Below are positions 19,556 to 47,391 of a stretch of DNA of 64,000 bases, one piece after another. The DNA is taken from positions 1-64,000 of IMG/VR virus record IMGVR_UViG_2928768511_000002; one strand, given 5' to 3'. Source of the DNA: a virus (taxonomy: Duplodnaviria > Caudoviricetes). The translations under genes were made by a program, and so were the position numbers. The notes under the pieces are model-generated. The model was not told the origin of the DNA. It saw nothing but the letters and a program-made list of their open reading frames with translations, and searched no databases. Within the stretch, counting starts at the first letter, position 1. Each line of letters opens with the position of its first letter.

Positions 19556-20047
19556 ATGCGACGGCTGCGGTCGGCGATCTGTGCCGGCTGCCAGTCGCCA
19601 TTTGTGACGCGGAACGCGAACCCTAAATTCTGCTCCAGCTCTTGCGCTGCGATGTTCAATAACTCGTTCGCTCCAAAGCGTGCAGCAAAGCCGCGTCTGC
19701 CTTGCGAAGTGTGCGGCGAGCCAACCAGGCGAAAGCGGTTTTGCAGTCGCCTCTGCACGTACGAAGGTCAGAGGAAGTACTCCACCGAAGAGGAACGGCG
19801 GAAAGCTGACCGAGCGATCAAAAATGAAGCTTGGCAGCGCTACATGGCGCGCCGTCGAAACCAGACGCCGGTCAATGTCGATGTGAAGGCGTTGCAAGAG
19901 ATCTATCTGACTTGCCCGGAAGGGTACGAGGTAGACCACAAGATCCCGATCTCGAAGGGCGGTTTGCACTGCCCGTCAAATCTGCAGCACCTCCCAACAC
20001 CTGAGAACAGGCGAAAGGGGGCGAAGCTGCTTCCAGAATATCAGTGA
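19556..20047 (+). CDS. HNH endonuclease with N-terminal Zn fingers
   Basis: CxxC...CSxxC repeats; YEVDHKIPISKGGLHCPSNLQHL...NRRK. Confidence 0.9.
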   Translation: MRRLRSAICAGCQSPFVTRNANPKFCSSSCAAMFNNSFAPKRAAKPRLPCEVCGEPTRRKRFCSRLCTYEGQRKYSTEEERRKADRAIKNEAWQRYMARRRNQTPVNVDVKALQEIYLTCPEGYEVDHKIPISKGGLHCPSNLQHLPTPENRRKGAKLLPEYQ

Positions 20048-20113
20048 GCGCATGGGCGCGGCCCGGTCTCCAAAACCGTGTGTCCGCTGGTTCGAATCCA
20101 GCCACGGATGCCA
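20040..20113 (+). tRNA. Degenerate tRNA-Trp (CCA)
   Basis: CGGT-CTCCAAA-ACCG arm, perfect T arm GCTGG-TTCGAAT-CCAGC, G73-CCA; acceptor stem 6/7; aberrant short D arm; overlaps HNH stop. Confidence 0.5.
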
Positions 20114-20127
20114 ACCAAATGCACTGT

Positions 20128-20160
20128 GCTGCGAGAGTTCAAGTCTCTCCCCCGGTGCCA
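20128..20160 (+). pseudogene. 3' half of a tRNA
   Basis: T arm GAGAG-TTCAAGT-CTCTC, 7-nt acceptor strand, G-CCA; no matching 5' strand nearby. Confidence 0.5.
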
Positions 20161-20178
20161 AACAAAAAAAGAAGAACG

Positions 20179-22017
20179 ATGGGCACGTTACGCTACCAGG
20201 TGCTGTCCCCGAGCGGCATCAGCATTGGCACGGACTTCTATGCGCTAAACTCGATCGTCACCCTGACGGAAGAGGGCGCGAAGTACCTTCTACTCAACAG
20301 GCAGATCTGTCTTGCAACTGGTCAGCAGGCGCCGGCCGGCCAGCCGCCGGCTCCCAACGAGGACGACGTCTATCTCGACGTTCGGTACAACGGCGTCATC
20401 GAGACGATATCGCTCACGAAGCTGCGCTCGATGTTTCCGAGCATCAAGGGCGATGCTGGTCCGCTAGGTCCGAAGGGGCCCGCCGGCCCGCAGGGCGAGA
20501 AGGGACTCAAGGGCGACACCGGGCGCGGCATTGCGCTCAAGGGCATTGTCGCAACCAATCTCGATCTGCCGTCCAGTGCCGAGGAGGGAGATGTCTGGCT
20601 CGCTGAAGAGACCGGCCGCGGTTACGCCTGGTCTGACGGCAATTGGAAAGACATCGGCGCCTTCCGTGGTCCGCAAGGCGGCCAAGGACCGGCTGGTCCC
20701 GCCGGCCCGCGCGGTCTGAAGGGCGATCAGGGCGTTCCTGGCCCGAAGGGCGAGGCGGGGCTTAAGGGTGATCCTGGCGATCCGGGCAATCCGACGTACG
20801 CCTATCGGGCAGAAGCCGGCATGACGGCAGCTGAAGCATCAGCGACGTCTGCTGCCGCCAGCAACGCATCCGCGGCCAATCACGAGGCCAACGCGCGATC
20901 CTACAAGCAGGGGGCTGAGACCGCCGCAACGAACGCCGCCGCCAGCGAAACGTCAGCGAACCAGCACATGGTTGACGCAGCGGCGTCGCGAGACGCGGCT
21001 GCTGGTAGCGCGCTCAGCGCCGGCACTTCGGCGGGCGTAGCGACGACGGCGGCCGGCAGTGCGCAGGGATACGCAACCTCCGCACAGACCTCCGCTGAAA
21101 CTGCAGTAAGCGCTCAGAACGCTGCGGCCGACGCCGTGACCAAGATCAACGAGTTCAAGGGCATCTACTACGGTGGTCTCACCGCTGATCCCGCGTCTGA
21201 TCCGCTTGGCGCCGCGCCGAACGGTGGCGACTTCTACTTCAACACCACGACCAAGAAATTCCGCGCCTACGATAGCACGGCCTGGAACGACATGGTGTCG
21301 GTTGGAACGCTGAAGCGCTTCATCTTCTCGGCCGGCGCCGGGCAGACGACGTTCACGGGCGCCGACGCCTTCACCAGGACGCTGGCCTACACCCCAGGCG
21401 CGGTCGAGGTCGTGGTCAACGGCATGTGGCTGCCATACAGCGACTACACGGCCAACAACGGCACGTCTATCGTGCTGAACACGCCGTGCGCTGGCACCGA
21501 CGTCGTTTACGTGTTTGCCATGAGCGCCTACAGCGCGGCCGACACCCTGCAGAAGTCGGCGAACGGCTCTGACATCCTCGACAAGGCTGCGTTCCGTAGC
21601 AATCTCGGCCTTGGTACCGCCGTAGGTCAGATCGGCCAGCGTCTCGTTGCTCAGGGCTCCACTGGCAACCTCGTCACTGGCGTGCCGCAGACCTGCACCT
21701 CGATCCTGTTGCCGGTCGGCACCTGGGACATCGAGGCGCACGCGGTCTTTGGAGGTTCGGGCAGCACAGCGACGTCGGACTGGATCTCGATGTTGGCTGC
21801 AAGGGGAGCCACCGTTTCGGCTGGCGATACGGTCGGCGTCAGCATGCACACGCGCATGCCAAGTGGCTACGACTATTCGATCAATCACACACACCCGAAG
21901 AGCCGGATCACCTCCGACGGCACCTACACCATCTACCTGAACGCACAGGCGACGGTGAACACCGGAACGGTTTTCAACTGCACCGGGACACTTCAAGCAA
22001 TCAAGGTGGCGGCATAA
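20179..22017 (+). CDS. Collagen-repeat fibre protein
   Basis: G-X-Y runs, Ala/Ser coiled segment, GDFYFNTTT..YD..W and NGSDILDKAAFRSNLGL fibre motifs. Confidence 0.8.
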   Translation: MGTLRYQVLSPSGISIGTDFYALNSIVTLTEEGAKYLLLNRQICLATGQQAPAGQPPAPNEDDVYLDVRYNGVIETISLTKLRSMFPSIKGDAGPLGPKGPAGPQGEKGLKGDTGRGIALKGIVATNLDLPSSAEEGDVWLAEETGRGYAWSDGNWKDIGAFRGPQGGQGPAGPAGPRGLKGDQGVPGPKGEAGLKGDPGDPGNPTYAYRAEAGMTAAEASATSAAASNASAANHEANARSYKQGAETAATNAAASETSANQHMVDAAASRDAAAGSALSAGTSAGVATTAAGSAQGYATSAQTSAETAVSAQNAAADAVTKINEFKGIYYGGLTADPASDPLGAAPNGGDFYFNTTTKKFRAYDSTAWNDMVSVGTLKRFIFSAGAGQTTFTGADAFTRTLAYTPGAVEVVVNGMWLPYSDYTANNGTSIVLNTPCAGTDVVYVFAMSAYSAADTLQKSANGSDILDKAAFRSNLGLGTAVGQIGQRLVAQGSTGNLVTGVPQTCTSILLPVGTWDIEAHAVFGGSGSTATSDWISMLAARGATVSAGDTVGVSMHTRMPSGYDYSINHTHPKSRITSDGTYTIYLNAQATVNTGTVFNCTGTLQAIKVAA

Positions 22018-39761: not shown

Positions 39762-39977
39762 ATGGCAAAAGCAAAGAACGCGGCCACCGAAGAGGTGGTC
39801 GCGGTGGAGCCGCAGGCTCCCGAACCGGCTCCGATCATGTATGAGGTAACCCTGAACGGTCGCTTCACTCACATGGACTTTCCCTACCTGCCTTCGCATC
39901 ACCACATCGTCGACAAGGCGATCTACGATGCGATGGTCGAAGCGGGGGTAGTTGCCGATGTCAAGCAACTTTCCTGA
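39762..39977 (+). CDS. Small hypothetical protein
   Basis: 71 aa, GC3-rich. Confidence 0.65.
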   Translation: MAKAKNAATEEVVAVEPQAPEPAPIMYEVTLNGRFTHMDFPYLPSHHHIVDKAIYDAMVEAGVVADVKQLS

Positions 39978-41652
39978 GCTTGTATTCAGCGACGACGAAG
40001 ACTTCACGGCAGACCGATTGAACTTGGCGATGCAGGTGCTGGATCAGCGCCTGCGTTCGCTGGAGCCTTTTTCTCCGAGCTGGGAGCAGGCGGTCAACGA
40101 TCTGCGTCTGGTCGGACTCTCTCGACTGAACGACGCCATCCTGCCGGCGTATCAGCGCATCCAGCTGCTGTCCACGCTCGGCTTCCTGTTTGCTGGCTCG
40201 TCCAGCGAAGTCACTCTTACCCAGGACATGACCGCGACGTTTGTCATTGACGACGAGACGGAAAAGTCCCTGTTCACCCCGACGCCATTCCTGGCGCTGA
40301 CCCGCTCCTCGACGATCGATGACTATGCGATTGCGCAGTTGATCTCGTATGAGCAGGCGACCGGCACCTTGATGGTGAAGGTCAAATCGATCACCGGCAG
40401 CCCTGGTCCTTTCACGGACTGGCAGATCGGCGCCTGTGCGGCGTCAACCATCGCGGCGATGGCCTACTTCACGCAGATCGATGCGGCCCGCAACGCAGCC
40501 AACGTTGCAAAGGCAGCAACAGCTGCCGACCGCGTACAGACCGGTCTCGACCGCATCCAGACGGGTGTGGATCGGAATGCCGCGGCGCAGTCGGCTGTAG
40601 CAGCGTCTGCCTCTGCTGACCGAGCCGGCACCTGGGATCCGACCAACTACGCCCTCAAGTCGTATGTGGACGGCAAGATCCAAGCGCTGGTCGGCACCGC
40701 GCCGGCCACCCTCGACACGCTCGCGGAAATCGCGGCGCAGATGCAGGCGGACGAGAGCGGCTTTGCCGCGCTGTCCACCACGGTCTCCGGCAAGCTGACG
40801 GCAACGCAGAACCTGAACGACCTGACCGACAAGGCACAGGCTCGCATCAATCTGGGCGTCACTTTCGCCAACCCGACCAGCAAGTCGGGCCTAACGGCGG
40901 CGAACGGGTCGGCCGTTACCTACATGCGGTCTGATGCTGCACCTGCGATCGACGTTTCGATCGCGCCGACCTGGACCAACAAGCACATCTTCCAGTGGAA
41001 CTCTGGAGCGACATACTGCATCAACGTCCAGACCTATGGCGGCTTGACCATCTACGCGCCGGACCAGGGCTCGGCGTTCATGACGTTCCATCGCGGCGCA
41101 TACGCGAGCCAGTTTGGGCTCGACGGTGACAACTACTACCGATGGGGTGGTTGGTCGGATGGTGCTGGCGGAGTCCGTATGTACCTGAGCCCTGGTGGCT
41201 TGTTGTACAGTGCAGGTTACGGCGCCTCGACGACGCCTGTTGGTGGTCAGGTGCGCGCGGCCGGCGACATCATCTACGGCCTGTCGGATCAACGTCTGAA
41301 GGACGACATCCAGATCATTGAAGATGCTCTGGAGAAGATCGACCAGCTCGATGGCGTCACCTGGGTTCAGAGCGATCTGGCCCGCGAGGTTGGTGCACCG
41401 GTTCAAGACCGTCGCAAGGCCGGTCTGTTGGCGCAGCAGCTGGAGAAGGTTCTGCCCGAAGCGGTCGGCCTGGCTCCGTTCGACACGAACAAGCTGATGA
41501 AGAGCCGTACGGGCTTGAACCTGCTGAACATCCAGTACGAGCAGGTTTCTGGTCTGCTGGTGGAAGGCATCAAGGCGCTGAAGCGCAAGAACGACGCGCT
41601 CGAAGACCGAGTCGCACGGCTCGAAGCGATCATCGAGAAGCTGGGGGTGTAA
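39958..41652 (+). CDS. Tail fibre with C-terminal intramolecular chaperone (peptidase S74)
   Basis: LSDQRLKDDIQ.IEDALEKI..LDGVTW; GLLAQQLEKVLPEAV; YE....LLVEGIK.L coiled coil. Confidence 0.9.
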   Translation: MSSNFPELVFSDDEDFTADRLNLAMQVLDQRLRSLEPFSPSWEQAVNDLRLVGLSRLNDAILPAYQRIQLLSTLGFLFAGSSSEVTLTQDMTATFVIDDETEKSLFTPTPFLALTRSSTIDDYAIAQLISYEQATGTLMVKVKSITGSPGPFTDWQIGACAASTIAAMAYFTQIDAARNAANVAKAATAADRVQTGLDRIQTGVDRNAAAQSAVAASASADRAGTWDPTNYALKSYVDGKIQALVGTAPATLDTLAEIAAQMQADESGFAALSTTVSGKLTATQNLNDLTDKAQARINLGVTFANPTSKSGLTAANGSAVTYMRSDAAPAIDVSIAPTWTNKHIFQWNSGATYCINVQTYGGLTIYAPDQGSAFMTFHRGAYASQFGLDGDNYYRWGGWSDGAGGVRMYLSPGGLLYSAGYGASTTPVGGQVRAAGDIIYGLSDQRLKDDIQIIEDALEKIDQLDGVTWVQSDLAREVGAPVQDRRKAGLLAQQLEKVLPEAVGLAPFDTNKLMKSRTGLNLLNIQYEQVSGLLVEGIKALKRKNDALEDRVARLEAIIEKLGV

Positions 41653-41653
41653 G

Positions 41654-41887
41654 ATGGCCGTTCCGTCATCTGGCGCTGTCGGCTTCTCGACCGTCAACTC
41701 CGTCTTCGGCTACGGCATCGCGATGAGCAGCTACGTCGGCCGGCCCTACTACTACTACGAAGTGAACTGGGGCGTTAGGTCCGGCACCTTCCCAGGCTCC
41801 AACTTCCCGATGTCTCTCTTCTACGGGAAATCCAACCACGACGAATGGAACTGCGCCTGCGCCTGCGCCTGCGCGTGCGGCAAGTGA
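41654..41887 (+). CDS. Tail-tip-like peptide with C-terminal (Cys-Ala)n repeat; candidate radical SAM substrate
   Basis: MAVPSSGAVGFSTVNSVFG...MSSY...FP.SN..MS.FYGKS, ending NCACACACACGK; starts 1 nt after fibre stop. Confidence 0.75.
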   Translation: MAVPSSGAVGFSTVNSVFGYGIAMSSYVGRPYYYYEVNWGVRSGTFPGSNFPMSLFYGKSNHDEWNCACACACACGK

Positions 41888-41893
41888 GGATCA

Positions 41894-42214
41894 ATGACCA
41901 AGCCACCGAGCACCACCTTCAGCTACCGGATCAATCACTGGAGCAAGGACGGCTGGGCTCGAGTCGAGTATCGGCACGAGACGCTCGGTAGCTTGGTCAA
42001 GCAGGTCTTCATCCCGCTGAACCATTCGGAAGAGGAGCAGCGTGGCGCCGTCATCATGCAGTTCCCCTGGCAATCCTTCCACGCCAGGTATCTTGAAATG
42101 TTGGCGCAGGCGGCTGCTCCGGCCCCTGCGGCAATGGAAGGACAATTCACGCACCGCATCGATCGTCCCATGGAGGATCCGGTCGGTTTGCCCATGGAAA
42201 CCCAAAAGGTGTAG
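41894..42214 (+). CDS. Hypothetical fibre-associated protein
   Basis: GAGGA RBS; predicted three strands then helices. Confidence 0.7.
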   Translation: MTKPPSTTFSYRINHWSKDGWARVEYRHETLGSLVKQVFIPLNHSEEEQRGAVIMQFPWQSFHARYLEMLAQAAAPAPAAMEGQFTHRIDRPMEDPVGLPMETQKV

Positions 42215-42216
42215 CG

Positions 42217-42762
42217 ATGCAGTTCAGGCGCATCCGTTTCGAGAACTTCACGATCACGATCTTCACGGCGCATGCCGGCGAAGAGAGGGTCTGTCCTCCG
42301 TCTGAACTAACCCGCGGCCTGACCGCGTCAGACGCTCCGGCCATCGCTCACCTGCTCGAAGGCAAGGATGATGCTCGGCCGCTCCACACCATTCCGGTGT
42401 ACACCAAGGGAGGCTTCGAGGCTCTCGGCGGCGATCACGCGCCGGACCCTCGCCCGGCTGGTAGCGGCGCCACTCAGTTCGTGAGGGGCATCGACAACTA
42501 CAAGCTCCGCGCCACAGCGGCGGATAGCGAATATCACTGCATCACCCCGAAGAGCAAAGAGCCGGTGTTCTGGCAGCGCTCATTCGTCGGCGGGAAGGCC
42601 GGCGACACGTTCGAGGTTCTGCCCAACAGCTACCTCTACATCGCAGAGGGCAAGATCGAGCTGGCTCACCGAACGTTCGTCGGCCCCACGATGCTTGAGA
42701 TCACCAAGCCGCACACGGCCAAGATCACCGATCCGGTGATGGGCGCCAAGCTCTGGCGCTGA
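42217..42762 (+). CDS. Cupin/jelly-roll-like hypothetical protein
   Basis: Alternating beta pattern (SEYHCITP; YLYIAEGKIEL); fold is inferred. Confidence 0.55.
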   Translation: MQFRRIRFENFTITIFTAHAGEERVCPPSELTRGLTASDAPAIAHLLEGKDDARPLHTIPVYTKGGFEALGGDHAPDPRPAGSGATQFVRGIDNYKLRATAADSEYHCITPKSKEPVFWQRSFVGGKAGDTFEVLPNSYLYIAEGKIELAHRTFVGPTMLEITKPHTAKITDPVMGAKLWR

Positions 42763-42772
42763 AAGGAGCCCC

Positions 42773-43402
42773 ATGCCCACGATCCGCTTCCTGACGCCTG
42801 CCGACTTTGGCGATATGTGCGACATCATCGACAAGCACAGCAGCGGCATGGGCGCATGGTGCAACGATCCGAGCGCCCCGGTGAAACCGAACTTCCGCCA
42901 GCTCGCGAAGGACCATGTGGACCTTTGCTTCGAGCAGGCTATGTCGAACTTCTGGGGCTATTTTGACGACTCCGGCAAGCTCGTCGCCTGGGTCAACTTC
43001 ACCCGATGGGCTGATCCGATCAACATCACCATCCGCTCCGTAATCGAAGATCCGGACGCCGACCTGCCGCGCCGCGTTGGCGCTGTCTGGTCGGAAGCCG
43101 CGGTCGATCTGGTGAACTGGGGCATGGGGTACTTCTGGTCGGAGGGCGTCGAGAATTTCTGGTGCCGCATGTATGCCGGCAAAGAGGATCGGCACATCTC
43201 GGATCACCCCAACTGCATGCTGACTCAATACCAGCGCGAAAGGGTCAAGTTCATCCGGGCCGGCGAGCAACCGCCGCCCGAGTATCGCAGGGTCAGCTGG
43301 TCGCCGTTTGACGACGACACAGCGATCTATCGGTTCTCCGACACATTGCCGCTGCTGGCGTATCTCGAAAGTGCAAATGATCCGACTGGAAATGCTGAGT
43401 GA
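42773..43402 (+). CDS. GNAT-fold acyltransferase-like protein
   Basis: IRFLTPADF start; FWGYFDDSGKLVAWVNF; LVNWGMGYFWSEGVENFW. Confidence 0.55.
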   Translation: MPTIRFLTPADFGDMCDIIDKHSSGMGAWCNDPSAPVKPNFRQLAKDHVDLCFEQAMSNFWGYFDDSGKLVAWVNFTRWADPINITIRSVIEDPDADLPRRVGAVWSEAAVDLVNWGMGYFWSEGVENFWCRMYAGKEDRHISDHPNCMLTQYQRERVKFIRAGEQPPPEYRRVSWSPFDDDTAIYRFSDTLPLLAYLESANDPTGNAE

Positions 43403-44675
43403 GAACGGAGAGGTCGTGCCTCTGTTCTACGATCAGCACACCTCACGTCTGCTCGACAAGGACGGCTTCAAGGCCGTCGACTACACCAACAACCCGATGT
43501 ATGACCCGGAGCCATCGCAGCGCCGGCCGTTCATCGCGGTGGACTACGATCAGCCAGGGCGTAAGGTCCGCGAGGTCCGGAAGCTGAAGATCCAGCTCGG
43601 CCTCGGCTGCAACAAGTCCTGCTCATACTGCCTCCAGGCGATACAGGTTCAGAAGGCCGCGGCGACAAGCACGCGGGATGCGTCGGAATTTCTGGCGAAC
43701 ATCGACGGCTGGATCGTCAACCCGGAGGGGATGGAGAAGGTCGAGCTTTGGGGTGGCGAGCCGCTGCTCTACTGGAAGAAGATCGAGATCCTCGCCCCGG
43801 CGTTGATCACGAAGTTCCCGAACGCTCAGTTCTCGATCATCACGAACGGCGAGCTGCTCACTCGAGAGATCGTCGATCAGCTCAAGGCCTGGAATTTCTC
43901 TCTGACCATCAGCCACGATGGCCCGGGGCAGGCGGTAAGGGGAGACGACCCGTTCGAAGACCCTCACAAATTTGCCATGATCCAGTACGCGCAGAAGACG
44001 TTTCATCCGCGCTTCTCGTTCAACGCTGTGCTCACCCCTAAGAGCCACGACGTCAACGCCATCATCGACTGGTTCCACGATTACTTCCCGGGCTGCAACG
44101 TCGGCTTCGAGGGAGTCGTTCACAGCTACGCCAGCGACCCGGCATCGATCTTCTCGATCGAGCAGTTGGCGCAGTTCAGCGACACGCTGTCCCGACAGCT
44201 GGCCGATGGATCGGCTCTCCGATCCCCGGCGATCATGGACAAGCTGCGCAGGTCGGTGAACTCGTTCGTCAATGAGCAGTCCTCGAAGACGCTGTTCCAG
44301 AAGTGCGGCATGGACATGCCGGAGTATCTGGCGGTCGACCTGAAGGGCAACGTCATGACCTGCCAGAACGTGGGCGCCAACGGCAACCACAAGATCGGGC
44401 ACGTCAGCGACTTCGAGAACATCGCGCTCAACACCTCCAAGCACTGGAGCAAGCGCCCAGAGTGCCAGAGCTGCCCCGTGCTGCAGCTTTGCCAAGGCGC
44501 CTGCATGTACCAGGGAGGGGACAACTGGACGCACAGCTGCAACGCTGAGTTCTTCTACAACCTGGCCTTCTTCAGGGCCGCGCTCTTCATCCTCACGGGA
44601 CGATGGCTGGTTGGTTTCAGCGGCGACATCGTGCGTCCGAAACTGAAGAAGGATCGCGATGTCGAAGTTCGCTGA
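43377..44675 (+). CDS. Radical SAM/SPASM protein
   Basis: CNKSCSYC; LWGGEPLL; ITNG; ISHDG; SPASM CG..x..C...CQSCPVLQLCQGAC..C. Confidence 0.92.
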   Translation: MIRLEMLSENGEVVPLFYDQHTSRLLDKDGFKAVDYTNNPMYDPEPSQRRPFIAVDYDQPGRKVREVRKLKIQLGLGCNKSCSYCLQAIQVQKAAATSTRDASEFLANIDGWIVNPEGMEKVELWGGEPLLYWKKIEILAPALITKFPNAQFSIITNGELLTREIVDQLKAWNFSLTISHDGPGQAVRGDDPFEDPHKFAMIQYAQKTFHPRFSFNAVLTPKSHDVNAIIDWFHDYFPGCNVGFEGVVHSYASDPASIFSIEQLAQFSDTLSRQLADGSALRSPAIMDKLRRSVNSFVNEQSSKTLFQKCGMDMPEYLAVDLKGNVMTCQNVGANGNHKIGHVSDFENIALNTSKHWSKRPECQSCPVLQLCQGACMYQGGDNWTHSCNAEFFYNLAFFRAALFILTGRWLVGFSGDIVRPKLKKDRDVEVR

Positions 44676-45390
44676 ACTGGTGGGGATTCTTGACAAAATA
44701 CCCCACCTGTTCTTAGAAAAGGCCTACGATGCGACACGTCTACAAAACGAGTTAGACGCCATCGATCCGGCACTTTTCGTGCCCTTCCGTTCCAAGAGCA
44801 GAAACGCTGACCACATCGCCGAGTTCTGGCGAGGTCTTTCGCTGGTCGCTCCGAGCGGATCTCTCCATGACGATTTGACCGAGGTTCCATACGAAGGCCG
44901 TACAGGCTACGTCTGGACCCTGGTCGCCGAGAGCAGCCCCTACATCAAGCAGCTCGTGACCGAGCTTGGCGGGGAGGGGCAGCGCGCGCGGCTCATGTGC
45001 GTGAAGGCAGGCGGCAGTCTGACCTGGCACCGCCATGGATCAGAGCTTTCGATGATCGTCGGCGCCCACGGCCGGCGGCCGAACTGGTACGAGCTGATCG
45101 TCCACGTCCCCATCCGCACCAACCCGGACTTCAGCTACGAGGTCATCGACACTCGGGTCTACGAGCTGGCGGACTACTCGGCCGGGAAGCTGGAGATCCA
45201 CCGGAAGAACTACCCGCAGGGCGAGGCCTGGGCGTTCAACGGTGCTCACTACCACAACGTCTTCAACCGCTCCGAGACCGAAGACCGCTACGCCATCATG
45301 CTGACCCTCGACATCAGGATGAGGAAGACGTTCGACATCGTGTCGAAGGCGGTCGAGAGCTACGAGGGGCCACTCCTGACAGGGCTCTGA
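44659..45390 (+). CDS. Asp/Asn beta-hydroxylase-like Fe(II) oxygenase
   Basis: RARLMCV..GG.L.WHRH; HVPIRTNP; GEAWAFN..HYHNVFN....R. Confidence 0.8.
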   Translation: MSKFAELVGILDKIPHLFLEKAYDATRLQNELDAIDPALFVPFRSKSRNADHIAEFWRGLSLVAPSGSLHDDLTEVPYEGRTGYVWTLVAESSPYIKQLVTELGGEGQRARLMCVKAGGSLTWHRHGSELSMIVGAHGRRPNWYELIVHVPIRTNPDFSYEVIDTRVYELADYSAGKLEIHRKNYPQGEAWAFNGAHYHNVFNRSETEDRYAIMLTLDIRMRKTFDIVSKAVESYEGPLLTGL

Positions 45391-45391
45391 A

Positions 45392-45814
45392 ATGGAAACC
45401 ATCATCTCCGCGAAGCCGCCCGACGTGCTCGCGGACAACTTCATTGTCGCCACGAACGAAGACTGGGTTCGTGAGTGGCAAATCAAGAACAGCGGCGTGA
45501 TCGTCCCGATTCAGCCCGACTGGAAGCTGTACATGCAGCTGCAGCGGACATCGACCGGCGATCTTGGCGTGACGTGCTCTACCGACAATGGCCGCCTCGT
45601 GGTCGTCGATCAGGGCGCCGGCAAGTTCGGTCTCAGGCTGAAGCAGGCGGACGCCGCCCAGATCAGCCCTGCGGGCTACCAATATGACATCGTCCTCGTT
45701 GCTGGCGATGGCATCTACCGCCTGGTGACAGGCACCATCACGGTCGACCAGGGGATCACCAACATCCCCGGCCAGGAGAAGTGGATTCACTATCCGCTGA
45801 TCCTTCGACCGTAA
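45392..45814 (+). CDS. BppU N-terminal-like structural protein
   Basis: Ig-like pattern; G.F.L.L....A..I..AGY.YDIVL...GTITVDQGIT. Confidence 0.65.
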   Translation: METIISAKPPDVLADNFIVATNEDWVREWQIKNSGVIVPIQPDWKLYMQLQRTSTGDLGVTCSTDNGRLVVVDQGAGKFGLRLKQADAAQISPAGYQYDIVLVAGDGIYRLVTGTITVDQGITNIPGQEKWIHYPLILRP

Positions 45815-45879: not shown

Positions 45880-47307
45880 ATGACTCTGCAATACCTGCAC
45901 GGCATCGAGACGATCGAACTCGACAGCCCCTCCGGTCCGGTTGAGACCGTCAAGTCGAACGTGATCGGCTTGGTCGGCACCGCCCCGGACGCCGACCCGG
46001 ATCTCTTCCCGCTCAACACCCCGGTGCCGGTGTTCGCCGACGCGCTCAAGGCGGGCCAGCTCAAGTCGTCTGGCACGCTGCTCGACGCCGTAGACGCCGT
46101 CTACAGCCAGAAGTCGGCTGTGGTCGTGGTTGTCCGCGTCTCCGAAGGCGAGAGCCAGGAAGAGACCTGGTCCAACGCGGTCGGCTCGCCCAGCGGCAAG
46201 ACCGGCGTCTGGTCGCTGCTCAAGTCGCGTCCGATGCTGAAGGTCATCCCGAAGCTCCTGGTCGCGCCCGGCCTGACCTCGGGTCGTCCGACCAACGGCG
46301 TCAAGAACCTCGTCATCACCGACGACGGCCAGGACTACGTGCTCGCCAGCACGACCGTGTCGATCGCCGCTCCTCCGGCCGGCGGTCGGCAGGCGAAGGC
46401 GGTACCCCAGGTGGTCGGCGGCAAGCTGACCGGTCTGATCATCACCGACCCCGGCTTCGGCTACGTCGCTCCCCCGGCTGTGACGATCGGCGGCGCCGGC
46501 ACGGGCGCAACCGCAACGGCAACCCTCGGCCACGTCGCCAACCCGGTCGGCGTCTCGCTCGCGTCGATCGTTGACCGCCTCCGCGCGGTGGCGTTCCTCG
46601 ACGGCCCCGGCACGACCTACGAAGACGCGATCGAGTATCGCAACGACTACGGCAGCCAGCGCATCTCGATCGTCGACCCCGGCGTTCTGAGCTGGAACAC
46701 CGAGAACTCCGTCTACGTGACGAAGCCTGCCTCGGCTTACGCGGCCGGCATCCAGGCGCGCGTCGACGAGGAGAAGGGCTTCTGGTACTCGTTCTCGAAC
46801 GAGCTGATCCAGAACATCGGTGGCCCCGCCCGTCCGGTCGACTTCATGCCGAACGACCGCGACTGCGAGGCGAACATCCTCAACATGAACCAGATCACGA
46901 CCATCATCCACGATGATGGCTTCCGGTTCTGGGGTCTGCGCAACACCGGCACCGACGCCCTCTGGGCCCAGCTCTCGGTGCGCCGCACCGCGGACATGAT
47001 TTACGAGAGCCTGGAACGTGCTGAGCGTCCGCGCCTCGACAAGCCGTTCAGCTACGCGCTGCTCGACGGCATCACCGAGGACGTGAACGCCTACCTCCGC
47101 CTCCTCAAGTCTCGCGGCGCCCTGATCGGCGGCGAGTGCTGGATCGACAAGAACGTCAACACCCCGGCGACCTTCTCCGCGGGTGAGCTGACGGTTGACT
47201 TCGATCTCGAGCCTCCGGCTTGCTTGGAGCACCTCCAGTTCCGCGCGCGTCGCAACCCGAAGTACTACAACGACTTCATCGAAGAGTTCAGCCGACAGCT
47301 GGCGTAA
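45880..47307 (+). CDS. Tail sheath protein (P2 FI-like)
   Basis: YLHGIETIE; GLVGTAPDAD; GFRFWGLR; VRRTADMI. Confidence 0.93.
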   Translation: MTLQYLHGIETIELDSPSGPVETVKSNVIGLVGTAPDADPDLFPLNTPVPVFADALKAGQLKSSGTLLDAVDAVYSQKSAVVVVVRVSEGESQEETWSNAVGSPSGKTGVWSLLKSRPMLKVIPKLLVAPGLTSGRPTNGVKNLVITDDGQDYVLASTTVSIAAPPAGGRQAKAVPQVVGGKLTGLIITDPGFGYVAPPAVTIGGAGTGATATATLGHVANPVGVSLASIVDRLRAVAFLDGPGTTYEDAIEYRNDYGSQRISIVDPGVLSWNTENSVYVTKPASAYAAGIQARVDEEKGFWYSFSNELIQNIGGPARPVDFMPNDRDCEANILNMNQITTIIHDDGFRFWGLRNTGTDALWAQLSVRRTADMIYESLERAERPRLDKPFSYALLDGITEDVNAYLRLLKSRGALIGGECWIDKNVNTPATFSAGELTVDFDLEPPACLEHLQFRARRNPKYYNDFIEEFSRQLA

Positions 47308-47352: not shown

Positions 47353-47391
47353 AAGCCGATCCGGACTCCGGTCTGGGTCGGCTTTGTTTTT
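47353..47391 (+). terminator. Intrinsic terminator
   Basis: 14-bp stem followed by TGTTTTT. Confidence 0.7.

Follow-up and report, generated by a model that had tools for sequence, protein, structure and literature searches.

The window studied here is a stretch of 64,000 nucleotides (positions 1 to 64,000 of IMG/VR virus record IMGVR_UViG_2928768511_000002), a piece of a 75.7-kb provirus record whose proteins have their closest matches in Bradyrhizobium genomes. Between the tail fibre and tail sheath genes of this prophage lies a cassette of six genes. The core of the cassette is a small protein with a C-terminal cysteine tag, pep77, and a radical S-adenosylmethionine (SAM) enzyme of the SPASM type; the remaining genes encode an oxygenase-like protein, a GNAT-fold protein, a bicupin-fold protein and a protein of 106 amino acids (aa). 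The cassette probably acts as a protein-maturation module that is directed by the tag and forms part of the phage tail module; the cysteines of the tag would be modified, most probably by thioether cross-links. The probability of this reading is put at roughly 0.6. A sequence-only reading of the same DNA had proposed that the phage tailors its own receptor-binding tip. The pairing of enzyme and tag on which that proposal depends proved to be conserved and tied to tail-fibre modules, while pep77 itself was found to lack similarity to known structural proteins. The features at the core of the argument are as follows.

41654..41887, + strand: pep77, the 77-aa Cys-tagged protein and presumed substrate, ending NCACACACACGK; its start lies 1 nt past the fibre stop codon
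41849..41884, + strand: the Cys tag of pep77, N66-C-A-C-A-C-A-C-A-C-G-K77, by direct reading of the sequence
43377..44675, + strand, open from 43308: radical SAM/SPASM enzyme, 432 aa (PF04055, TIGR04085, phrog_1802), overlapping the GNAT-fold gene by 26 nt

Association of the enzyme with the tag

The radical SAM enzyme belongs to a family with 2580 homologues at E<=1e-20 and matches PHROG family 1802 (phrog_1802, 2.4e-55). At least 568 relatives were confirmed in a scan of viral contigs and 211 in a scan of species genomes. The loci sampled for comparison comprise 79 from viral contigs and 80 from genomes, giving 159 loci with radical SAM homologues. An open reading frame (ORF) was counted as tagged when it contained (Cx)2+C within 4 residues of the stop codon, and the upstream region was defined as 4 kb on the strand of the enzyme. 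By this definition, 107 of 2764 ORFs were tagged in the upstream 4 kb versus 5 of 15942 elsewhere, an odds ratio of 128; the associated Fisher p of 1.5e-82 overstates independence because the fetched loci are related to one another. In 134 loci the upstream flank measured 3 kb or more, and 90 of these had a tagged ORF upstream; a CxCxC ORF of some kind was found within 4 kb of the enzyme gene for 128 of 166 enzyme copies. The contexts cover many types of phage, and the association was seen in myo-, sipho- and Ackermann-type phages. For example, the enzyme gene directly follows the tail-fibre genes in Ralstonia phage RSP15 (Ackermannviridae) and in the Achromobacter phages JWF and 2-1 (siphoviruses), and the RSP15 fibre fragment has the C-terminus ...NTNCQCGN. 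The sequence-only reading had staked its proposal on whether homologues of the enzyme mostly lack a neighbouring Cys-repeat protein; within the phage branches they do not, and the idea survives there.

Gene order may also be coincidental, with the radical SAM enzyme serving the phage in some other way, for instance in nucleotide or cofactor metabolism, and the tags acting as unmodified structural motifs. Radical SAM genes of unknown role are indeed common in phages, and a chromosomal, non-phage clade of the enzyme family forms one well-supported branch that has no tag. Such a coincidence is nevertheless very improbable given a 128-fold enrichment of tags immediately upstream of the enzyme in myo-, sipho- and Ackermann-type phages. 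Furthermore, the minimal cassette at locus L009 consists of a 92-aa tagged protein and the radical SAM enzyme only, and the enzyme is of the SPASM peptide-maturase type and not of the QueE or viperin type. The tagless clade (L097, L101, L104, L108, L110, L112, L113, L114, L118 and L120, from Variovorax, Ramlibacter and others) probably has a different substrate; at L097 and L101, the enzyme follows an ATP-grasp-like gene (~320-365 aa) and a protein of ~750 aa.

From 78 distinct tags, a consensus of [FYST]-N-(C-x)n-C was derived to which the pep77 tag conforms. Each tag contains 4-7 cysteines, and 50 of the 78 extend to the stop codon. The first Cys is preceded by Asn in 70 tags, and the intervening X residues are most often Asn (161), followed by Ala (49), Asp (39) and Arg (27).

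Carriers of the tag

The proteins that bear the tag range widely in size and composition. Small carriers are 55-135 aa in length and often occur in tandem sets of 2-3. Large carriers include true tail fibres, among them JWF gp028, the protein at L141 (623 aa, with a CBM5/12 domain and collagen triple-helix repeats) and a 307-aa protein with PHROG tail-fibre matches (L139), and a fibre similarity cluster takes in 67 tagged proteins. Three placements of the tag were identified: at the stop codon, just before a Hint domain, and just before an S74 chaperone domain. In the second case, exemplified by JWF gp028, the sequence ...NCNCDCNCNCSC is followed by a Hint domain (PF05203, 3e-12) in which the Hint Cys1 is also the last Cys of the tag. 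In the third case, a long (C-K)n run in the L045 fibre precedes the S74 chaperone (PF13884, 2.4e-13). If the Hint and S74 domains self-cleave as usual, all three architectures would leave the tag at or near the mature C-terminus. Since carriers of 55 aa to 620 aa have unrelated N-terminal parts, the enzyme would appear to recognise the tag and not a leader. The assignment of carriers to small and large classes on the enzyme tree is partly unreliable because ORF starts are ambiguous in the Rhodobacteraceae clade, and the count of carrier-size changes on the tree supports no conclusion for the same reason.

Very long (Cys-Lys)n runs of about 9-25 Cys were observed in the fibres at L045:116-910, L054/L055:3-407 and L057:997-1704. 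These fibre genes lie ~6 kb upstream of the radical SAM gene. The start of the S74 chaperone (W-SD..LK) directly follows the run at L045, L054 and L055; the L057 run ends differently and has no Pfam match.

Identity and chemistry of the radical SAM enzyme

The description of the enzyme as a radical SAM protein with a CxxxCxxC motif and a complete SPASM Cys pattern, made at first from sequence inspection, was confirmed. The PF04055 match (8e-11) scored 42.8 bits against a cut-off of 29.5, and the TIGR04085 match scored 39.8 bits against a cut-off of 27. Among 15 homologues, C78, C82 and C85 of the radical SAM motif CX3CX2C are invariant. The SPASM pattern CX9-15GX4C ... CX2CX5CX3C ... C supplies seven Cys for two auxiliary clusters, and the corresponding residues C310, G324, C329, C363, C366, C372, C376 and C388 are invariant or nearly so in the same set. 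Translation probably starts at 43377 since the homologues are 427-432 aa long.

The best matches among curated families are enzymes that form Cys thioethers, namely the ranthipeptide maturase PapB (NF047865, 4.6e-21) and QhpD (TIGR03906, 4.2e-18). Neither family can be assigned, with scores of 75.4 bits versus a cut-off of 340 for PapB and 65.2 bits versus 453 for QhpD, and the neighbouring genes are tail genes, not qhpC or qhpA. Against the anaerobic sulfatase-maturating enzymes (anSME, TIGR03942), the enzyme scored 42.8 bits where 349 are required, and the tagged protein lacks a C/S-x-P-x-R motif. In a profile search, the nearest solved structure was TvgB (8VPO, 2.9e-21), a cyclopropylglycine synthase, ahead of CteB and anSME. 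With family scores below cut-off and TvgB as the nearest structure, the chemistry is not fixed by similarity. The proposal of a thioether chemistry like that of peptides that are synthesized ribosomally and then modified post-translationally (RiPPs) therefore agrees with the best curated matches but not with the nearest structure or with the curated maturase cut-offs, all of which were missed. Because the Cys residues are invariant in the tag, the thiols are the likely point of reaction, and thioether cross-linking is ranked first, as the most probable of the candidate chemistries.

The radical SAM enzyme could also act on the tag without making thioethers, by forming formylglycine (as anSME does), a C-C link or an epimer, or the tag could chiefly be a metal-binding ladder of cysteines at the end of an oligomeric fibre, comparable to the iron sites of the T4 gp37 needle, that the enzymes merely prepare. 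Alternate residues of a β-strand face one side, and CxC motifs are classic metal ligands. The nearest solved relatives include a C-C bond former (TvgB) and anSME in addition to CteB, the JWF homologue is annotated as an anaerobic sulfatase-maturating enzyme, and in the lineage of the window the Cys residues alone are conserved, not the residue between them. On the other hand, the anSME score is far below its cut-off, the anSME substrate motif C-x-P-x-R is absent, and the best curated matches are thioether formers. The predominance of Asn, Asp and Ala at the X positions across the family, together with the Asn before the first Cys, suggests that the neighbours matter as well as the thiols. A modification other than thioether formation, or a chiefly metal-binding tag, is thus considered unlikely.

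A RiPP recognition element (RRE) or PqqD-like domain gave no Pfam or NCBIfam match on the enzyme or its neighbours; approximately 60 residues precede the enzyme core, and that segment was not searched structurally. No protease or transporter family match was found in the six genes or their flanks, and there is likewise no immunity gene in the operon.

The 77-residue protein

The expected 77-aa peptide with a poly-Cys end was located. Its cysteines are confined to the last 12 residues, and no other in-frame Cys-x repeat occurs in a real gene of the window. A GCCTGC hexamer, repeated almost perfectly, encodes the tag, and positions 41852-41875 read (TGCGCC)x3 and then TGCGCG; since close relatives differ in the number of Cys-x units, a slippage-type variation in tag length is suggested. 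Homologues of pep77 occur in Bradyrhizobium prophages, L007 and L009. Among them the Cys positions are kept, with 4-6 Cys per tag, and the X positions are occupied variously by A, D, N, V or T. All Bradyrhizobium and L007 relatives share a C-terminal Lys that L009 has not kept.

The N-terminal part of pep77 contains the motifs PSSGxVxFS...FG and NFPMSxFYG. These recur, as PSSGxI/VxxS...FG and ...FYG, at the N-terminus of a family of tagged proteins of ~300 aa, which provided the only significant match (E 0.0012) when a hidden Markov model of the pep77 family was compared to larger fibres. A tblastn search of isolated phages (50,697 records) with pep77 and a small tagged protein from Rhodobacteraceae gave no match.

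The ~300-aa tagged proteins are encoded just downstream of the radical SAM gene at L056, L064, L065, L071, L072, L074, L076 and L078-L080 (e.g. L076:6101-6982). After their pep77-like N-terminus come several N-C-x-C blocks that end ...NCNCACNCSKIICAKLYE; the C-terminal part includes a hydrophobic segment.

In place of a component of the tail, pep77 may be the precursor in a moron-type RiPP cluster, with an N-terminal leader and a Cys-rich core that the radical SAM enzyme, the oxygenase and the GNAT-fold protein would mature to a small released peptide. The product could be a bacteriocin, a signal or a metal binder, and a location in the tail operon would provide late expression without making it a virion part. 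RiPP clusters typically include GNAT and oxygenase tailoring, and the pep77 cassette has genes of both kinds. The carrier is small with Cys only in its last 12 residues, and small tagged ORFs are often arranged in tandem sets of 2-3, as RiPP precursors are. The cassette at L007, the closest distant relative of that in the window, also fits this description since its neighbours are oxygenases and a desaturase-like gene, and the only S74 fibre gene identified in that 607-kb phage record is ~350 kb away. However, the operon is without a protease, transporter or immunity gene, no RRE or PqqD-like domain was found on the enzyme by Pfam or NCBIfam, and the same tag is present on fibres of 300-620 aa with Hint, S74 or collagen domains. 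The module also has a fixed place between fibre and sheath in related prophages. Lastly, the entire N-terminal part of pep77 is under purifying selection (a nonsynonymous to synonymous rate ratio, dN/dS, of 0.10-0.22 among Bradyrhizobium relatives) and carries motifs in common with the ~300-aa tagged family. A released RiPP product is consequently judged to be quite unlikely.

Association of pep77 with the virion is favored slightly over the contrary. Its gene begins 1 nt after the fibre gene inside the tail operon, the module keeps its position in related prophages, and there is no protease or exporter. Furthermore, true fibres carry the same tag, and the N-terminal motifs are shared with the ~300-aa tagged family. 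On the opposite side are its lack of similarity to known structural proteins, its absence from the isolated phages searched and the distance of the L007 cassette from tail genes.

Accessory genes and related loci

Four accessory genes accompany the core pair in the window.

41894..42214, + strand: 106-aa protein conserved with the cassette, present in Bradyrhizobium loci and L007; dN/dS 0.17-0.35
42217..42762, + strand: 181-aa protein with a predicted bicupin fold (AlphaFold2 model, Foldseek, VIA-align)
42773..43402, + strand: 209-aa protein with a predicted GNAT fold, a putative N-acyltransferase (AlphaFold2 model, Foldseek, PDB profile matches)
44659..45390, + strand: 243-aa PF05118-like oxygenase (family-wide PF05118 matches), overlapping the radical SAM gene by 17 nt

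The assignment of the 243-aa protein as an Asp/Asn-hydroxylase-like oxygenase holds at the level of its family, through a weak family-wide match, and is sub-threshold for the window protein taken alone. The latter scored 17.7 bits against PF05118, below the gathering threshold of 22.6, while 7/7 family members matched (best 2.7e-6). An invariant WHxH...H...HNVFN signature is present, and H124, H126, H149, H181 and H199 are invariant in the family.

For the 209-aa protein, the suggested GNAT identity is supported by the predicted fold. An AlphaFold2 model made from 40 aligned distant relatives (63 are known) had a predicted local distance difference test score (pLDDT) of 94. Foldseek returned at least 500 matches, and all of those listed are acetyltransferases, with target-normalised template-modelling (TM) scores of up to 0.78 and RimI among them (5isv, 6.8e-8). 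The top four matches of a PDB profile search were also acetyltransferases, with E about 0.02. Relative to the acyl-CoA motif (Q/R)-x-x-G-x-(G/A), the sequence R100-R-V-G103-A-V fits at every position but the last, and its G103 does not vary across the family. A Pfam scan of 41 family members gave no match.

The 181-aa protein, which had been described as cupin-like, is likewise predicted to have that fold. Its AlphaFold2 model (pLDDT = 79.6) resembles pirin YhhW with a VIA-align Z of 11.1, and both HutD and YhaK with a Z of 10.5; the top 50 VIA-align matches are all cupins, and Foldseek identified 3rns (1.3e-5), HutD and AerE. The His/Glu metal motif of cupins was not found. Only one His, H107, is invariant in the 6 relatives compared, which makes a canonical cupin metal site doubtful. 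No match was obtained in a Pfam scan of the 6 family members.

Other searches were less informative. The 106-aa protein had no match in Pfam, PHROG, NCBIfam or PDB profiles, and PDB profile searches with the 243-, 181- and 106-aa proteins and a ~297-aa partner protein of other loci found nothing significant. ESM Atlas provided weak leads (Acetyltransf_1, Cupin_7/KduI), and word-indexed homologue searches with the 209- and 181-aa proteins recovered Bradyrhizobium relatives only.

Neighbour clustering revealed that the widespread form of the cassette comprises a fibre or small tagged protein, the ~297-aa protein (95 loci), one or two PF13759 2-oxoglutarate-Fe(II) oxygenases (90 loci) and the radical SAM enzyme. 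This arrangement, with tagged peptides, is present at L011 and L086. The window has neither the ~297-aa protein nor a PF13759 oxygenase, and its four accessory genes were found only in Bradyrhizobium prophages and L007 among the loci compared. BLASTP detected no similarity between the 243-aa oxygenase and RSP15 gp046 or JWF gp029. As hhalign of the oxygenase, bicupin and 106-aa proteins against the PF13759 oxygenase and ~297-aa protein gave probabilities below 1%, the two accessory sets are regarded as not homologous. In related alphaproteobacterial myovirus prophages the module is kept between the S74 fibre and the sheath with variable accessory genes. From this variation in content, the conserved core consists of the tag and the radical SAM enzyme, with oxygenases as recurrent extras.

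L007:3736-13770, in the 607-kb IMG/VR phage record, is the sole locus outside Bradyrhizobium with the whole accessory set of the window. Its additional genes encode a membrane protein resembling fatty-acid desaturases, a 304-aa protein, a ~240-aa family present in three copies, and PF13640 oxygenases, of which there are four. Between the bicupin and GNAT-fold genes, an extra gene of ~240 aa that is absent from the window was observed at L005/L084:5663-6394 and L007:5540-6262. The copy at L007 matches PF00487 (fatty-acid desaturase-like); by BLAST, that at L005/L084 falls in the same cluster. At L005/L084 the oxygenase gene is duplicated and two tagged peptides are also present, which, as a single event, is at most a hint.

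A distant relative of the GNAT-fold protein is encoded just before the neck genes of a T4-like phage (L164:61-6609, a JGI metagenome contig). It is preceded by an S74 fibre, three collagen-like proteins with G-P-T repeats and three PF13640 prolyl-hydroxylase-like oxygenases. By its gene content, this looks like a separate fibre-modification module for the hydroxylation of collagen-like phage fibres.

Genomic context

The late region of the window is of an ordinary myovirus type. Genes for the terminase, portal, scaffold, major head protein, baseplate proteins, a 752-aa tail protein and the S74 tail fibre are followed by those for the sheath, tube and tape measure. The following features flank the cassette.

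39952..41652, + strand: S74 tail fibre with a C-terminal intramolecular-chaperone domain (PF13884 9.9e-14; phrog_1980 tail fibre 1.7e-25)
45392..45814, + strand: 140-aa tail-fibre-assembly-like protein (phrog_1084 1.8e-9; phrog_3304 'L-shaped tail fiber protein assembly' 5.4e-6)
45880..47307, + strand, open from 45781: tail sheath (phrog_23 8.9e-102; PF04984, PF17482); homologues begin MT(L/V)QYLHGIE

Six co-directional and tightly coupled genes placed after an S74 fibre and before the sheath had been described from the sequence. All six ORFs were recovered on the + strand, and the Pfam and PHROG matches of the flanking genes agree with this placement. The S74 domain of the upstream fibre spans residues 445-505 of 566 (51.8 bits; cut-off 22), and this fibre has no Cys tag of its own. 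Within the cassette, the junctions consist of gaps of 1-10 nt or overlaps of 17-26 nt. At the two junctions that were read, those before the 77-aa and 106-aa genes, Shine-Dalgarno-like GGGGG and GAGGA sequences are present. No terminator-like site was found between the fibre and the sheath, and a strong terminator-like hairpin lies 3' of the sheath (47353-47384). By this layout, the cassette is predicted to be co-transcribed. Relative to counterparts in other Bradyrhizobium prophages, dN/dS is 0.04-0.35 for all five small cassette genes, indicative of purifying selection; thus the genes of the cassette are real.

Upstream of the terminase and outside of the main tail module, a 657-aa protein resembling tail fibres or tail proteins (phrog_819, 4.7e-36) is encoded at 20044-22017.

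Proposed maturation module

In the proposed mechanism, a protein with a mature C-terminal Asn-(Cys-x)n-Cys tag would be served by a dedicated radical SAM/SPASM enzyme with three [4Fe-4S]-type Cys motifs. The enzyme would recognise the short C-terminal tag instead of a leader peptide and modify its cysteines, most probably by forming thioethers to neighbouring residues, either inside a single chain or from chain to chain in a fibre-like oligomer. In the Bradyrhizobium lineage, the oxygenase, the GNAT-fold acyltransferase, the bicupin protein and the 106-aa protein may each add a step of their own. A candidate reaction for the oxygenase is hydroxylation of Asn/Asp at the conserved (D/N)-E-W-(N/A) just before the tag. 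For the GNAT-fold protein, it is acylation of the N-terminus or of the C-terminal Lys kept in the Bradyrhizobium and L007 relatives. The product would be a small fibre-associated protein, synthesized late in infection together with the tail, one end of which is chemically hardened and insensitive to reductants. The enzyme-substrate relation, the thioether chemistry, the targets of the tailoring enzymes and the incorporation of pep77 into the virion are presumed.

Several findings weigh against this module. The enzyme falls far under the cut-off of every curated maturase family and its nearest solved structure makes a different kind of bond; moreover, Cys-Asp/Glu links of the PapB or QhpD type cannot explain everything in the window because the X residues of its tag are Ala. 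There is no detectable similarity between pep77 and known structural or virion proteins. One chromosomal branch of the enzyme family dispenses with the tag, and relatedness among the loci means that the Fisher p exaggerates their independence. Finally, the L007 cassette has an amidase gene upstream, no tail gene within 7 kb and a great distance to its S74 fibre gene.

A wider reading is advanced tentatively. In many tailed phages, a leader-independent radical SAM enzyme directed by a C-terminal tag might install covalent sulfur cross-links in fibre ends or small fibre-associated proteins, with further changes made by oxygenases and acyltransferases. The links could possibly join the chains of a trimer and so harden or tune the host-recognition apparatus, affecting particle stability or adsorption. 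The Bradyrhizobium prophage would then carry a variant with its own tailoring set.

Comparison with known systems and significance

Cross-linking by radical SAM/SPASM enzymes has been known from secreted peptides and two cellular proteins, QhpC and CrpA. No account of a pairing between radical SAM enzymes and Cys-repeat tail fibres was found in full-text searches of the literature. In aerobic proteobacteria, the radical SAM/SPASM enzyme QhpD introduces Cys thioethers into the protein subunit QhpC during maturation of quinohemoprotein amine dehydrogenase, linking Cys to Asp/Glu with the aid of an RRE and a leader on QhpC (PMC13692751). Like the proposed module, this system has a protein subunit and not a secreted peptide as its substrate, and QhpD is the second-best curated match to the window enzyme; in contrast, the latter has no detected RRE, its presumed substrate has a C-terminal tag with X = Ala, and it belongs to a phage tail module. 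The closest published logic is that of CrpC/CrpA from Methanococcus voltae, where a SPASM radical SAM enzyme introduces ranthionine cross-links into a Cys-repeat protein encoded by the adjacent gene (Dieter et al. 2026, PMC13692751). CrpA has 17-residue repeats with C-x-x-Q/D motifs and an N-terminal leader-like region, and the system has an RRE (PMC13692751). It has in common with the window a Cys-rich protein beside the radical SAM enzyme. However, it is archaeal and not viral, and the window enzyme matches TIGR04463 with 1.1e-12 and 47.5 bits versus a cut-off of 525. From these two published systems, a protein substrate has precedent (PMC13692751).

The ranthipeptide and sactipeptide maturases (PapB/freyrasin, NF047865; CteB/SCIFF, PDB: 5WGG; NxxcB) also have Cys-rich cores as substrates, and among solved structures CteB ranks second for the window enzyme (2e-14). 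For streptococcal NxxcB, Asn is a known acceptor. These enzymes differ in being guided by leaders and accompanied by proteases or exporters, and their rings are C-x3-D or N-x-x-C, not a C-terminal alternating N-C-x-C. The SPASM enzyme anSME (PDB: 4K36-39, TIGR03942) needs neither leader nor RRE to read a local motif within a full-length protein, much as reading of the tag is proposed for the window enzyme, but the cassette of the window has neither a C/S-x-P-x-R motif nor a sulfatase. The needle of T4 gp37 contains His-x-His iron sites in a trimeric fibre tip. By analogy, the chains of a trimeric fibre might be held together by a motif of alternating residues close to its distal end; in gp37, however, the residues are His with bound iron, no enzyme is needed, and the motif is not at the extreme C-terminus. 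TvgB, the nearest solved structure, also acts on short repeated motifs, forming C-C bonds on Val of TVGG repeats that contain no Cys (PDB: 8VPO, PMC10878394).

The window adds to the cassettes described above a variant whose 77-aa substrate is free-standing and Ala-Cys-tagged and whose tailoring set (PF05118-like oxygenase, bicupin, GNAT and 106-aa protein) differs from the common one. The Bradyrhizobium example is compact, its host is culturable, and its small substrate is suited to mass spectrometry. A tag of 6-12 residues that is modified by a single enzyme on unrelated carriers could become a tool for protein stapling. If the proposed module is correct, a virion tail component that is read via a short C-terminal tag would represent a new use of SPASM chemistry and, beside capsid cross-linking and the autoproteolysis of fibre chaperones, a new way for virions to mature. 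Should the modification be real, it may have consequences in many phages for the stability of fibres, for host range and for fibre engineering.

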